A DNA stretch of 64,000 nucleotides. Source: an uncultured Actinomycetota bacterium. GTDB lineage: Bacteria; Actinomycetota; Actinomycetes; Mycobacteriales; Mycobacteriaceae. The DNA is taken from contig CAWHIZ010000036.1 in the NCBI GenBank assembly GCA_963829405.1, positions 23,619 to 87,618 on the forward strand, given 5' to 3'. The translations under genes were made by a program, and so were the position numbers. Below, piece after piece: positions 5,372 through 21,628 of this stretch (position 1 is its first letter; the number at the start of each line of letters is the position of its first letter). Below the pieces are notes generated by a model, which worked only from the letters and a program-made list of their open reading frames with translations, was not told where the DNA came from and ran no database searches.

Positions 5372-5383
5372 CTGATATATGAG
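5372..5383. promoter_or_regulatory. Operator-like palindrome copy 1 (CTGATATATGAG)
   Basis: One mismatch to the palindromic core TGATATATCA. Lies in the sdaA / flavoprotein divergent intergenic region, 39 bp upstream of the sdaA start (5333). Confidence 0.5.
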
Positions 5384-5512
5384 TGTGTCTCGTAACGGTA
5401 GGTCAGGCAGGTCATCGGGTCAAGGGCGGGATTCCACCGGCCGTCATCACCCTTGACCCAGGGCCGGTTAGTGACATACATTACAGAAATCTTGACGTGT
5501 TAGAAAACATAT

Positions 5513-5524
5513 CTGAAATATCAG
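5513..5524. promoter_or_regulatory. Operator-like palindrome copy 2 (CTGAAATATCAG)
   Basis: 12-bp near-palindrome 15 bp upstream of ATG 5539. A TTGACG hexamer (-35-like) lies at 5492-5497, so the site would overlap the -10/+1 zone of that promoter. Confidence 0.5.
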
Positions 5525-5538
5525 AAGGCCGGTTGGTT

Positions 5539-7588
5539 ATGTCCATGCAGCTCATCGATCCGCTTCTTCAGCAGTTCCAGCTGAAGAACATGACCCTGCG
5601 TAACCGCGTCGTCAGCACGTCCCACGAGCCGTCGTACACCGAGGACGGCATGCCCAAAGCGCGCTACCGCCTCTACCACGAGGAGAAGGCCAAGGGCGGC
5701 ATCGGCCTGACGATGATGGGCGGCTCCGCGGTGGTCGCCCCCGACAGCCCGGCCGCCTTCGGAAACCTGCACGTGTACAAGGACGAGATCGTGCCGTGGC
5801 TTCGAGAGCTGGCCTACGGGGTGCACGAGAACGGCGCGGCGGTGATGTGCCAGATCACCCACCTGGGCCGGCGCACGAGCAACTACGACGGCGACTGGCT
5901 TCCCGTCATCGCGCCGTCGGCGATCAGGGAGCCCGCGCACCGCGCCTTCCCGAAGGTCGCGGAGGAATGGGATATGGACCGCATCGTGAAGGCATACGCC
6001 GACGCGACGGCCAGATGCCGGGAGGCGGGTCTCGACGGCATCGAGCTCGAGGCCTACACCCACCTGCTCGACTCGTTCTGGTCCCCGCTGACCAATCACC
6101 GCGACGACGAGTACGGGATGGGCAGCCTCGAGGACCGGCTTCGGTTCCCGCTGCGGGTTATCCGGGCAGTGCGCGAAGCGGCCGGGCCTGACTTCACCGT
6201 CGGTATTCGGATGTCGCTCGACGAGGACACCGACGGCGGCCTGAAGTACGACGACGGCGTCGAGATCGCCAAGCGTGTGGTGGCCGAGGGTATCGACTTC
6301 ATCAGCGTCATCAAGGGCTACATGGCCAGCGACGAGGCGCTGTCCCGGGTGATCCCGCCGATGGGCACGCCGGTCGCGCCTCACCTCGAGTTCGCGGGCC
6401 GGGTCAAGGAGGCCCTGCAGATCCCGGTCATGCACGCCGCACAGGATCAACGACGTGGCGACCGCGCGCCATGCGATCCGCGATGGGTTGATCGACCTGG
6501 TGGGGATGACCCGCGCGCATATCGCCGATCCGCACATCGTCGCGAAAATCCAAGCGGGCGAGGAGGACCGGATACGCCCGTGCGTCGGAGCCAGCTACTG
6601 CCTCGACGAGATCTACCAGAGCCGCGACGCCAAGTGCGTGCACAACGCGTCGACGGGACGCGAGGACCGGATGCCGCACCACGTGCCCGCCGCGACCGGA
6701 CCGGCACGCAAGGCTGTCGTCATCGGCGGCGGGCCCGCAGGTCTCGAGGCGGCCCGCGTTCTCGGCGAGCGCGGCCACAAGGTGGTGGTGTTCGAGGCGG
6801 CCGACGCAGCGGGCGGCCAGATCCGACTCGCCTCGTCGGCACCCCGACGTCGCGACCTGATCAGCATCGTCGACTGGCGGCTGGCCGAGTGCAAACTGCT
6901 CGATGTCGACATCCGGACCAACGCCTACGCCGAGGCCGGCGAGGTGCTCGCCGAGAACCCCGACATCGTGGTGGTGGCCACCGGCGGACTGCCCAACACC
7001 GAATTCCTCACCGAGGGTTCGCAGTTGGTCACCGATGCATGGGATGTGCTCTGCGGAGCGGTCCGGCCTCGCGGCAAGGTCCTCTTCTACGACGACAACG
7101 GCGGACACCCGGGGATGGATGCCGCCGAAGTGGTGGCGCGAACCGGTGTCGAGGTCGAGTTCGTCACGCCGGAGCGCACGTTGGCGCCCGACGTCGGCGG
7201 CGTGAACTACCCCGGCTACTTCAAGGCATTCGCCGAGTACGACGTTCGGGTGACGCTCAACGAGCGGGTAACCGGAGTGCGGCGCAAGGACGGTCGCCTC
7301 GAAGTCGACCTGTACAACGAGTACGCGCATGCGACAAAGCAGCGTCTCGTGGATCAGGTCGTCGTCGAGCACGGCACCCTTCCGCAGGACGAGCTGTACT
7401 TCGACCTGGTGCCCGGTTCATCCAACCTCGGCGAGGTCGATCAGCAGGCCCTGCTCGATCTGCGCCCGCAGCAGGTCGTGCGCAACTCCGATGGCGGCTA
7501 CCAACTGTTCCGGATCGGCGACGCGGTCGCGAGCCGCAACATCCACGCCGCGATCTACGACGCCTTCCGGCTCTGCATCGTCCTTTAA
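5539..7588 (+). pseudogene. StcD/DgcA-like N-methyl amino acid demethylase flavoprotein (OYE-type FMN domain + FAD/NAD(P) domain), one frame change
   Basis: The N-terminal OYE-like TIM barrel starts at 'MSMQLIDPLLQQFQLKNMTLRNRVVSTSHEP..' in ORF 5383..7656. After about 6443 that ORF turns into Arg/Pro/Gly-rich text. The real continuation 'ATARHAIRDGLIDLVGMTRAHIADP..VVIGGGPAGLEAA..' is in ORF 6455..7588. Length is 3n+1. Confidence 0.8.
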
Positions 7589-7631
7589 CCAGATTCGTCA
7601 CCAGCAATCTCCGACAACGAGGAGTTCTTCT

Positions 7632-8717
7632 ATGCCACAGCATGTTCGAGGTGTGATCGCGCGCGCCAAGGGGGCGCCGGTCGAGGTCGCGACGATCACG
7701 ATCCCTGACCCAGGCCCCGGCGAGGTCGTCGTGGCGATCCAGGCCTGCGGTGTCTGCCACACCGACCTGACCTACCGCGAGGGCGGCATCAACGACGAGT
7801 TCCCGTTCCTGCTCGGCCACGAGGCCGCAGGCGTGGTGGAAGAGGTTGGCGACGGCGTGGATTCGGTCGCCGTCGGCGACTTCGTCATCCTGAACTGGCG
7901 GGCGGTCTGCGGACAGTGCCGTGCCTGCAAGCGCGGCAGGCCGCAGTACTGCTTCGACACCTTCAACGCCGCACAGAAGATGACGCTCGACGACGGCACC
8001 GAACTCACCCCGGCTCTCGGAATCGGCGCCTTCGCCGAGAAGACGCTCGTGCACGCAGGCCAGTGCACCAAGGTCGACGCCGATGCGGATCCGGCCGTGG
8101 TCGGGTTGCTGGGATGCGGTGTGATGGCAGGCCTCGGCGCCGCGGTGAACACCGGCAACGTCTCGCGTGGCGACTCGGTGGCCGTGATCGGCTGCGGAGG
8201 CGTCGGTGATGCCGCGATCATGGGCGCCAGGCTGGCGGGCGCGGGCACGATCATCGCGATCGACCGCGACCCGCAGAAGCTGGAGTGGGCTCGTGACCTC
8301 GGCGCGACTCATACCGTGAACGCCGCCGAAGTCGACACCGTCGAGGCCGTGCAGGAACTGACGGGCGGATTCGGCGCGGACGTCGTGATCGATGCCGTCG
8401 GCCGCCCGGAGACGTGGCGACAGGCCTTCTATGCTCGTGACCTGGCGGGAACAGTTGTGCTGGTGGGTGTTCCGACACCGGAAATGAAACTGGAGATGCC
8501 GCTTGTCGACTTCTTCTCCCGCGGCGGATCGCTGAAGTCGTCGTGGTACGGCGACTGCCTGCCCGAGCGCGACTTCCCGACGCTCGTCGACCTGTATCAG
8601 CAGGGCAGACTGCCGCTGGAGCGCTTCGTCTCCGAGCGCATCAAGCTCGACGAGGTCGAGGACGCATTTCACACGATGCACAAGGGTGCTGTGCTGCGTT
8701 CCGTGGTCGTGCTGTAA
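7632..8717 (+). CDS. Zn-dependent alcohol dehydrogenase, S-(hydroxymethyl)mycothiol (formaldehyde) dehydrogenase type
   Basis: Intact reading frame from ATG 7632. Has 'GVCHTDL', '[12 protein letters not shown]' and the Rossmann motif '[12 protein letters not shown]'. Resembles class-III/MscR-type enzymes. Sits among formaldehyde-releasing demethylases. Confidence 0.8.
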
Positions 8718-20547: not shown

Positions 20548-20587
20548 GTTCGTGGCTTCTCCAAATTGCTCAAGGATTGATCTACAA

Positions 20588-20599
20588 CTGATATACCAC
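20588..20599. promoter_or_regulatory. Operator-like palindrome copy 6 (CTGATATACCAC)
   Basis: 41 bp upstream of the dimethylglycine oxidase start (20547), in the divergent region shared with the IclR gene. Confidence 0.45.
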
Positions 20600-20724
20600 G
20601 ATAGGATCCAAGCCTGCCAGGGTCAACCCGCAAGTGCGTATTGCGCAACCTGTTCCTCGTAGAGCAACGCGCCCGCGCGGGGTAGGTCACAGAGAAGCCG
20701 AGCTACCTGGGTAGGGTCGCGCCT

Positions 20725-21507
20725 GTGAGCAACGGGAGCTCCGACGCAGGCGGCGGGGGTGTGCAGTCGGTTGACCGCGCGGTTTCCGTCCTGGAGATCC
20801 TCGCTCGCCTCGGTGAAGCCGGGGTGACAGACCTCGCGACCGACATCGGCGTTCACAAGTCCACGGTGTCGCGTCTGCTCACCGCGCTCGAGGAGCACGA
20901 GCTGGTCGAGCAGGCGCATGAGCGGGGCAAATACCGGCTCGGGTTCGGCATCCTCCGGCTGGCCAATGCGGTGTCCGGACAGCTCGACATCACCCAGCAG
21001 GGCCGCGAGATCTGTGAGCGGCTTGCCGTCGAGGTGGGCGAGACGGTCAACATCGCGGTGCTGCGATCGCATTATGTGGTCAACGTCGACCAGGCTCGGG
21101 GGCCGACGTCGGTCGGCAGCCACAACTGGGTCGGTGAGCTCACGCCTCTTCATGCGACGTCCAGCGGCAAGATCCTGCTGGCGTTCATGTCGGCGCAGGC
21201 GCGACGGGAACTGTTGAAGGAGCCCGGCCTTGCCCGCTACACCGAGCACACCATCACCTCGCTCGACGATCTCGACCGTCAGCTCATCTCGGTCGCGAGC
21301 GACGGCTACGTCATCTCGACCGAGGAACTGGAACATGGACTGACCGCGGTCGCGGCTCCGATTCGCGATCACACGGGCATGGTCATCGCCGCGCTCAGTG
21401 TCTCCGGCCCCGTCTATCGGCTGACCGAAGAGCGCGCCAGCCAGATCGCACCCGCAGTGGTGGCTGCGGCCGCGTCCGTCTCCGAACGCATGGGCTATCA
21501 GGGCTGA
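20725..21507 (+). CDS. IclR-family transcriptional regulator
   Basis: Intact 260-aa ORF with a GTG start. N-terminal wHTH 'VQSVDRAVSVLEILARLGEAGVTDLATDIGVHKSTVSRLL' plus an IclR effector domain. Confidence 0.85.
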   Translation: MSNGSSDAGGGGVQSVDRAVSVLEILARLGEAGVTDLATDIGVHKSTVSRLLTALEEHELVEQAHERGKYRLGFGILRLANAVSGQLDITQQGREICERLAVEVGETVNIAVLRSHYVVNVDQARGPTSVGSHNWVGELTPLHATSSGKILLAFMSAQARRELLKEPGLARYTEHTITSLDDLDRQLISVASDGYVISTEELEHGLTAVAAPIRDHTGMVIAALSVSGPVYRLTEERASQIAPAVVAAAASVSERMGYQG

Positions 21508-21616
21508 CTGCACGCGCAACTGCGAATCGGGCGCGCTTTGCGACGCTGGCGGTGGAGTAGCGCGCCGGATTCTGAAAAAACTTCAGTCGAACGCTGGTGT
21601 ATCACTGCGCCGCACT

Positions 21617-21628
21617 CTAATATATCAG
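21617..21628. promoter_or_regulatory. Operator-like palindrome copy 7 (CTAATATATCAG)
   Basis: Lies between the IclR stop (21507) and the BCCT transporter start. One mismatch to CTGATATATCAG. Confidence 0.55.

Follow-up and report, generated by a model that had tools for sequence, protein, structure and literature searches.

A conserved A/T-rich palindrome as the probable operator of GntR/FCD regulators in an actinobacterial betaine, sarcosine and one-carbon gene cluster

Background

In soil and in hosts, glycine betaine, dimethylglycine and sarcosine are plentiful as osmolytes and supply nitrogen and one-carbon units. Seven copies of an A/T-rich palindrome lie among genes for the catabolism of these compounds in a 64-kb stretch of DNA (hereafter the window) from an uncultured bacterium of the Mycobacteriaceae (contig CAWHIZ010000036.1, positions 23,619 to 87,618), which also encodes three paralogous GntR-family regulators and one IclR-family regulator. 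An original prediction, made from the letters of the window, had placed these genes in a single regulon and preferred the FadR/FCD-type GntR paralogs as binders of the palindrome. From the comparative analysis reported here, the palindromes are probably operators of GntR/FCD repressors, and the evidence supports a single regulon made up of the genes for glycine betaine, dimethylglycine, sarcosine, serine and one-carbon metabolism.

The closest described regulators are the GntR repressors of the FadR subfamily, whose members include E. coli FadR, PdhR, LldR, DgoR and UxuR/ExuR. Operators of this subfamily are usually A/T-rich palindromes of 12–14 bp, and the family-typical core is TKGT-N3-ACMA (PMC4494728). 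The window resembles these systems in that i) its paralogs combine a winged helix-turn-helix (wHTH, PF00392) with an FCD domain (PF07729), ii) an A/T-rich dyad lies over promoters in a catabolic cluster as well as over that of the regulator gene itself, and iii) the regulator gene is often divergent from the target operon. It differs from them in the target pathway and in the presence of three paralogs in one cluster.

Functional analogues are found in GbdR and SouR, whose regulons comprise betaine, dimethylglycine and sarcosine demethylation, glyA and sdaB, the same pathway genes as in the window, and which respond to pathway intermediates. GbdR and SouR of Pseudomonas aeruginosa and SouR of Vibrio natriegens are AraC-type activators (PMC3572970, PMC12093977). 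These proteobacterial proteins have a glutamine-amidotransferase-like domain, act from upstream activating sites and are unrelated in sequence to the regulators of the window, whereas the latter are GntR proteins with sites at the predicted transcription start. SoxR of Bacillus thuringiensis is likewise a dedicated regulator of a sarcosine oxidase locus, but it is a sigma-54-dependent activator (PMC4941409), its sox genes are organised differently, and it has neither a GntR domain nor a palindrome of this kind. In Corynebacterium glutamicum ATCC 14067, the repressor AmtR, also actinobacterial, is reported to act on genes that include a sarcosine oxidase (PMC8864220). It is a global nitrogen regulator of the TetR family, its box is a different one, and its sarcosine oxidase target forms part of a locus for creatine utilisation.

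Searches of the full-text literature, in which few subscription journals and no RegPrecise data were covered, gave no account of the operator or the regulon, and the GntR comparative-genomics paper with its supplements makes no mention of sarcosine, sox, glyA, sdaA or betaine (PMC4494728).

Occurrence of the palindrome in the window

The whole 64-kb window (G+C content about 66%) was searched on both strands with the pattern CTRATATATCAG, allowing up to two mismatches, and 100 dinucleotide shuffles served as the background. Matches were found at seven places only, starting at positions 5372, 5513, 9370, 15743, 16511, 20588 and 21617, by which the sites are named below (Table 1). These are the seven copies of the original prediction, with the sequences that it gave, and its statement that the window holds no comparable copy elsewhere was borne out. 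The 14 strand-matches observed compare with 0.95 ± 1.34 expected, and none of the 100 shuffles reached this number. An independent weight matrix of 14 columns, built from 159 sites of related loci with the four closest relatives left out, placed the same sites at ranks 1 to 7 of the window (24.1 to 14.8 bits), followed at rank 8 by a hit of 9.5 bits located 23 bp from the 21617 site.

The scores of the three weakest sites (9370, 5513 and 20588) overlap with those of the top hits in simulated windows (up to 16.0 bits) and are individually not significant, but the sites are counted as real because their orthologous positions are kept in relatives. The 5513 site is kept in L001, L002 and L004 as the variants CTGAAATGTTAG and CTGAAATATCAG, the 9370 site in L001 to L004, L007 and L027 as CTGAyATCTCAG or CTGAAATATTAG, and the operator of the dimethylglycine oxidase gene (20588) is conserved as TTGGTATATCAG. 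The 15743 site is the most conserved of the family, and almost every one of the 80 loci compared below has it ahead of glyA or soxB. The operator before the GntR paralog 3 gene (16511) is kept as ATGATATATCAG in about 20 mycobacterial loci, where a conserved deviation of the last base yields the −10-like hexamer TATCAT, and the operator of the BCCT transporter gene (21617), kept in L001, L002, L007, L011 and L027, holds the −10-like hexamer TAATAT. These promoter-specific deviations, ATGATATATCAG at GntR3, TTGGTATATCAG at dimethylglycine oxidase and CTAATATATCAG at BCCT, are retained across species, perhaps to adjust affinity or because they also serve as promoter elements.

All seven sites are intergenic, as had been predicted, and they lie within about 110 bp of a start codon, except that the IclR start is 125 nt from the 20588 site. 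This site is better read as an operator of dimethylglycine oxidase than as an IclR site.

Conservation in actinobacteria

For comparison, 80 loci were collected by a SoxB query, with one genome per species and soxB flanked by as much as 10 kb on each side (1.47 Mb in total). They represent Mycobacteriaceae, Rhodococcus, Gordonia, Hoyosella, Nocardia, Tsukamurella, Antrihabitans, Pseudonocardia, Amycolatopsis, Saccharopolyspora, Geodermatophilus, Cryptosporangium, Nakamurella and Pseudokineococcus. The motif was found upstream of orthologous genes in 78 of the 80 loci, in at least 10 actinobacterial genera belonging to several orders. Exact copies of yTGATATATCAr number 74 and copies with one mismatch 104, compared with 0 and about 1 in first-order Markov simulations, and none of these 178 sites falls inside the coding sequence of a pathway gene. 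This conservation upstream of orthologs supports, well outside the window, the claim of the original prediction that there is a single regulon.

Sorted by downstream gene, 48 sites precede glyA, 25 dimethylglycine oxidase, 24 soxB, 19 sdaA, 13 purU, 9 BCCT, 8 formaldehyde dehydrogenase and 6 flavoprotein genes; among the regulator genes, 55 precede GntR2-type, 28 GntR3-type and 20 IclR genes. The median distance from the site to the aligned start is 35–55 nt for the catabolic genes. In other taxa, sites are also found ahead of genes for a GcvH-like protein, an MFS transporter, a Mur-ligase-type protein, which by inference is FolC-like, and a ferredoxin reductase, all of which fit a one-carbon/betaine regulon. 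Of the open reading frames (ORFs) beside otherwise unassigned sites, about half proved to be spurious frames rich in Arg and Pro and were not kept as members. Symmetrised counts gave as consensus the 14-bp palindrome A-yTGATATATCAr-T, in which the flanking A and T reach 64% each and are conserved symmetrically, as are the G and C at positions 3 and 10.

GntR paralogs as candidate regulators

The three GntR paralogs of the window (GntR1 to GntR3) scored 66.0, 56.5 and 33.8 bits against the GntR wHTH profile (cutoff 27), the last value coming from a truncated frame; GntR3 is full-length once the extra base in its gene is removed. Their FCD domains scored 61.5, 85.4 and 76.9 bits (cutoff 24.3). 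None of the NCBIfam equivalogs (LldR, PdhR, NanR, CsiR, GlcC, PhnR and others) was reached by the three paralogs, the best score being 74.6 against a cutoff of 271.5 bits, and the nearest solved structure is 7u5q, an unnamed GntR-family protein (E = 1e-19).

Co-occurrence was counted in the 61 full-length loci. A GntR/FCD gene is present in 59 of them and the site lies directly upstream of a GntR gene in 55, figures that favour the binders preferred in the original prediction. A tree of 97 GntR/FCD proteins from the loci resolved four clades. Genes of the GntR2-type clade are divergent from glyA or soxB in Mycobacteriales and Pseudonocardia, while those of the GntR3-type clade lie beside purU in mycobacteria and are divergent from sdaA in Amycolatopsis, Saccharopolyspora, Geodermatophilus and Cryptosporangium. 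The GntR1-type clade is made up of seven close relatives of the window, Gordonia (L031) and one Mycobacterium locus (L038), and the fourth clade (GntR4) is small, with six loci, mostly of Mycobacterium genomes or metagenome-assembled genomes. The same operator is kept where only a GntR2 ortholog is found (Rhodococcus loci) and where only a GntR3 ortholog is found (Amycolatopsis, Saccharopolyspora and Geodermatophilus).

In the GntR2, GntR3 and GntR4 clades, the recognition helix and wing hardly vary over all taxa (GRTPVREALKRLE.DRLV..(Y/F)PRRGTFAT), so that the DNA-reading residues of these clades and the operator core are conserved in parallel; in the window, the recognition helix and wing of GntR3 match those of GntR2. 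GntR1 reads GRTPVREAIKRLAY.KLVV.YPRSGSYAA, with the wing PRSGSYAA in place of PRRGTFAT, and the sites by GntR1 and by the flavoprotein operon are variants, of the CTGAaAT and CTGAyATCTCAG types (CTGAAATATTAG and CTGAAATATCAG among them). This suggests that GntR1 has diverged in DNA specificity. GntR2 is the prime candidate for binding the palindrome.

Promoter position and second sites

A strict promoter pattern, TTGACN-N16–19-TANNNT, was sought upstream of the sites, and the gap was measured from the end of the −10 element to the 12-mer. The pattern was present at 46 of the 48 glyA sites (gap of 9 nt in 38) and at 22 of the 24 soxB sites (9 nt in 19), giving a gap of 9 nt in 57 of the 68 glyA and soxB sites with a promoter pattern. 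It was also present at 24 of the 25 dimethylglycine oxidase sites, with a gap of −2 to +2 nt, and at 11 of the 13 purU sites, with a gap of −2 to +10 nt. An operator covering about +1 to +14 or the −10 element is in the classical position for a repressor. As the sites lie on or just after the −10 element and the predicted start, we infer that the system acts by repression.

Weaker sites of the form YTG-N6-CAR were found beside the strong ones, 16 at an offset of 22 bp and 16 at 23 bp, with none at 21 or 24 bp and at most 3 at any other offset between 12 and 60 bp. An offset of 22–23 bp corresponds to two helical turns and fits two dimers on the same face of the DNA; shared ancestry of the loci inflates these counts but does not explain the phasing. 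The second site in the glyA leader lies beside the ribosome-binding site, and that upstream of the BCCT operator is conserved in relatives. At dimethylglycine oxidase, an 11-bp near-palindrome directly 3' of the operator is conserved in all mycobacterial promoters of this gene (TTGTwGATCAA); with one base fewer than the main operator, it is possibly a second, shorter-spaced site.

Two further observations concern the leaders. A further conserved box, GA(C/T)GTGTyAGA, located at about 5494–5505 between the −10 element and the operator of the flavoprotein gene, is found upstream of the flavoprotein gene in L001, L002, L004, L031, L037, L038, L040 and L048, also where this gene follows soxG. The Rfam covariance models gave no match at the gathering threshold in the whole window, and a riboswitch or other known RNA element in the leaders was therefore rejected.

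Proposed mechanism and alternative explanations

What the analysis establishes is that the sites exist and are conserved, that they keep a fixed position with respect to promoter-like elements and that they occur together with GntR genes. In the mechanism that we propose, dimers of the local FadR-subfamily proteins GntR2 and GntR3 would bind the 14-bp A-yTGATATATCAr-T, with GntR1 probably acting at the variant sites. Since the operator lies on or immediately past the −10 element and the transcription start, the bound regulator would block RNA polymerase, and at some promoters the weaker YTG-N6-CAR site two helical turns away would probably help a second dimer to bind. A pathway metabolite, for which sarcosine, dimethylglycine, betaine and glycine are candidates, would release the repressor by binding in the FCD domain. 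Derepression would then allow uptake (BCCT), demethylation of dimethylglycine and sarcosine, conversion of serine to pyruvate (sdaA), and formaldehyde/folate one-carbon handling by S-(hydroxymethyl)mycothiol dehydrogenase, purU and glyA. As the regulator genes carry the same operator, the regulators would repress themselves. The binding by these proteins, the effectors, the sign of regulation and the roles of the paralogs are predictions drawn from these observations.

Several points weigh against this proposal. The core TTGA-N4-TCAA, with its TATA centre, departs from the TKGT-N3-ACMA of the subfamily: the consensus yTGA-TATA-TCAr has GA/TC and a centre of 4 nt in place of TKGT/ACMA boxes spaced by about 3 nt, and the canonical TGGT half-site appears only in some variants, such as TTGGTATATCAG at dimethylglycine oxidase, so that the family argument turns on the general shape only. 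The locus counts (n = 80) are inflated by the shared ancestry of close species, and the promoters are consensus matches, backed by conservation alone. FadR-type proteins can also activate transcription. In addition, two loci (L078 and L080) carry the site with no GntR homolog within 10 kb, and the promoter function of the −10-like hexamers TAATAT and TATCAT could account for part of the conservation of the variants that hold them.

Three other explanations were weighed. The A/T-rich strings might be mere promoter elements (−10, extended −10 or A/T-rich start regions) of a G+C-rich genome, with incidental palindromy; every site is at a promoter, a candidate −10 element lies inside the 5513 site, and TANNNT hexamers are present in variants at BCCT (5 of 5), GntR3 (23 of 28) and some GntR2 sites, although this test is not strand-specific (TTAG variants yield TANNNT on either strand) and provides a hint only. 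We consider this very unlikely, since the perfect consensus CTGATATATCAG contains no TANNNT, the conservation of G, C and the flanking bases is symmetrical, the motif is in no other intergenic region of the window and the second sites are phased. At glyA, soxB, sdaA and dimethylglycine oxidase a separate canonical −35/−10 pair lies upstream and the palindrome follows at a fixed distance, so that a simple −10 element was rejected for these catabolic genes. At BCCT and GntR3 the operator itself holds a −10-like hexamer, and there this reading may hold in part. Alternatively, the motif might be bound by a regulator encoded elsewhere, such as a global nitrogen/one-carbon regulator or an AT-preferring nucleoid protein, with the local GntR proteins having other targets. 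The loci L078 and L080 would suit this explanation, as would the reported control of creatine and sarcosine genes by AmtR in C. glutamicum (PMC8864220), but it is very unlikely, because the site directly upstream of the GntR gene is the usual signature of a self-regulated local repressor, operator and DNA-reading residues are conserved together over several orders, and the motif is a precise 14-bp dyad rather than a general A/T-rich tract.

The explanation to which we give the least weight, and which appears highly improbable, is that the palindrome is the operator of the neighbouring IclR regulator and that this protein controls the whole cluster. The IclR gene sits between two sites of the window (20588 and 21617), IclR-family proteins too bind palindromes, and a site adjoins the IclR gene, upstream of it, in 18 of the 61 full-length loci. 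However, an IclR gene is present in only 39 of these loci, sites without an IclR homolog within 10 kb were found in 22, the Rhodococcus loci L015 to L017 have a GntR2 ortholog as their sole regulator, and the IclR-adjacent sites are dimethylglycine oxidase operators placed on the promoter of that gene. A second conserved palindrome, TGCGyAwTrCGCA, is a better candidate for the IclR box and possibly an activator site. In the window it occurs as TGCGCAATACGCA at 20635–20647, just upstream of the −35 element of dimethylglycine oxidase, with a one-mismatch copy at 23505–23517 ahead of the ferredoxin-reductase and GbcA-like Rieske oxygenase genes; the count in the window by itself is not significant, but boxes of this kind are also seen beside the IclR, BCCT and dimethylglycine oxidase genes of about 15 loci (e.g. 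L001 4587, L002 3742, L005 6651, and L055 20638 and 20657). With its poor co-occurrence and a separate candidate box, IclR was rejected as the binder of the A/T-rich palindrome.

Within the GntR/FCD operator model, a division of labour among the paralogs can be envisaged, which taken as a whole is possible but doubtful. GntR2 and GntR3, sharing their DNA-reading residues, might compete or form mixed dimers at yTGATATATCAr while sensing different intermediates (sarcosine, dimethylglycine, glycine), so that full induction would need several signals; GntR1 might have diverged towards the CTGAaAT-type variants, giving the flavoprotein/formaldehyde-dehydrogenase operon a separate control; and the deviations ATGATATATCAG, TTGGTATATCAG and CTAATATATCAG might set affinities and thereby an order of induction along the pathway.

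Gene content of the cluster and frameshifts

Genes were mapped with a frame-by-frame composition track and with Pfam and NCBIfam profiles (Table 1), and the identities given by the original prediction (sdaA, flavoprotein, sox genes, glyA, three GntR regulators, PurU-like formyltransferase, dimethylglycine oxidase, IclR and BCCT) hold by these profiles.

Table 1. Genes, operators and promoter-like elements of the cluster in the window. Bits for operators are scores of the independent weight matrix. For operators and other palindromes, the strand is that on which the given sequence is read.
Feature	Position (nt)	Strand	Remarks
sdaA, L-serine dehydratase	3944–5333	-	beta and alpha parts in different frames (extra base 4632)
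Flavoprotein, old yellow enzyme/flavin mononucleotide (OYE/FMN) and flavin adenine dinucleotide (FAD) domains	5539–7588	+	frameshift at 6441; operon 5539–8717 with next gene
S-(hydroxymethyl)mycothiol dehydrogenase	7632–8717	+	TIGR03451, 691 bits, above cutoff
GntR1 (wHTH + FCD)	8729–9364	-	narrow distribution, diverged wing
glyA-soxB-soxD-soxA-soxG operon	9399–15709	-	Pfam/NCBIfam
soxG	9399 to ~10000	-	frameshift at 9777
soxA	~9986–12935	-	frameshift at 11516
soxD	~12845–13120	-	
soxB	13149–14384	-	
glyA	14387–15709	-	
GntR2 (wHTH + FCD)	15817–16494	+	ortholog of the single regulator divergent from glyA/soxB across Mycobacteriales and Pseudonocardia
GntR3 (wHTH + FCD)	16541–17228	+	frame broken by extra base at 16661
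PurU-like formyltetrahydrofolate deformylase (formyltransferase)	17239–18090	-	Pfam/NCBIfam
Dimethylglycine oxidase	18087–20547	-	frameshift at 18442; with purU spans 17239–20547
IclR-family regulator	20725–21507	+	
BCCT-family betaine/choline/carnitine transporter	21680–23353	+	likely GTG start at 21680
Candidate operator, sdaA promoter, CTCATATATCAG	5372–5383	-	19.1 bits; 38 nt to sdaA start; ortholog upstream of sdaA in L001, L002, L006, L014
Candidate operator variant CTGAAATATCAG, flavoprotein/formaldehyde-dehydrogenase operon	5513–5524		15.5 bits; 14 nt to flavoprotein start
Candidate operator variant CTGAAATATTAG, between soxG and GntR1	9370–9381	-	16.3 bits; 5 nt to GntR1 start
Main candidate operator, common to divergent glyA-soxBDAG and GntR2 promoters	15743–15754		24.1 bits; 33 nt to glyA, 62 nt to GntR2
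Candidate operator before GntR3, CTGATATATCAT	16511–16522		23.0 bits; 18 nt to GntR3 ATG at 16541
Candidate operator, dimethylglycine oxidase-purU promoter, GTGGTATATCAG	20588–20599	-	14.8 bits; 40 nt to dimethylglycine oxidase, 125 nt to IclR
Candidate operator, BCCT promoter, CTAATATATCAG	21617–21628		21.0 bits; 51 nt to likely BCCT GTG
Putative sdaA promoter, TTGACC-17-TACCGT	5395–5423	-	operator 11 nt past -10; conserved in L001, L002
Putative flavoprotein-operon promoter, TTGACC-18-TACATT	5453–5482	+	5513 site ~30 nt downstream
Second candidate flavoprotein promoter	5492–5521	+	-10 inside 5513 operator
Putative GntR1 -10, TAACGT	9391–9396	-	9370 site 9 nt downstream
Putative glyA-sox promoter, TTGACG-17-TAGTCT	15764–15792	-	operator 9 nt past -10
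Putative dimethylglycine oxidase promoter, TTGACC-17-TATCGT	20598–20626	-	2-nt overlap with operator
Second site CTGCAATGTCAG	15720–15731	-	23 bp from main glyA operator
Second site CTGGTGTATCAC	21594–21605		23 bp upstream of BCCT operator; 9.5 bits
11-bp near-palindrome TTGTAGATCAA	20577–20587	-	directly 3' of dimethylglycine oxidase operator

The top NCBIfam match of the flavoprotein was a mycofactocin-type FadH/OYE oxidoreductase, below the cutoff, and its pairing with S-(hydroxymethyl)mycothiol dehydrogenase suggests a candidate amine demethylase releasing formaldehyde. In some mycobacteria (L043, L051 and L063), the genes for these two proteins come after soxG within the sox operon. Downstream of the BCCT gene, the region 23863–26303 encodes a ferredoxin-reductase-like protein, with its domain partly in frame, and a Rieske oxygenase whose top NCBIfam match was GbcA, a subunit of glycine betaine monooxygenase, with a score of 222.7 bits that falls short of the cutoff (670); this oxygenase probably carries out the first step, from betaine to dimethylglycine. 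The A/T-rich palindrome is absent ahead of the genes for the reductase and the Rieske oxygenase. Upstream of the cluster, the region 1–3665 encodes a cytosine/purine/allantoin-type permease, an amidohydrolase and a bicupin protein, none of them with the palindrome.

The closest genomes are those of uncultured Mycobacteriaceae and Mycolicibacterium species, with 93–94% nucleotide identity, L001 and L002 being the two closest. Compared with these two, single extra bases break the frame of six genes, those for sdaA, the flavoprotein, soxG, soxA, GntR3 and dimethylglycine oxidase (positions in Table 1), and the ferredoxin-reductase gene also carries indels (24491–25001). Since the proteins share 96–98% identity with those of L001 and L002 at this DNA divergence, which points to recent purifying selection, the frameshifts are more likely to be indel errors of the assembly than signs of pathway decay, and real pseudogenes are the less likely alternative. 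Elsewhere in the window, two ORFs match only the first part of their profiles and may be frameshifted as well: an AllG-like ORF (47554–48279; profile positions 1–81 of 215) and a flavoprotein ORF (55302–55811; the first 142 of 305 positions). Overlapping ORF pairs of the window were considered as a source of further frameshifts, but Pfam showed them to be mostly separate neighbouring genes.

Implications

The result is a solid regulon reconstruction within a known type of repressor rather than a new principle. Regulation of betaine, dimethylglycine and sarcosine catabolism is known in Pseudomonas, Vibrio and Bacillus, and we found no account of it for Actinomycetota. For this group, the analysis provides an easily testable model in which the single 14-bp operator, the repressor family and the promoters are all specified, and which spans Mycobacteriaceae, Rhodococcus, Nocardia, Pseudonocardia, Amycolatopsis, Saccharopolyspora, Geodermatophilus and others. 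It would allow the genes to be annotated as one regulon and points to added members, namely transporters, the GcvH-like protein, the FolC-like Mur-ligase-type protein and formaldehyde detoxification. The proposed pair of metabolite-responsive repressor and operator is also compact and may be of use in expression systems for high-G+C hosts.

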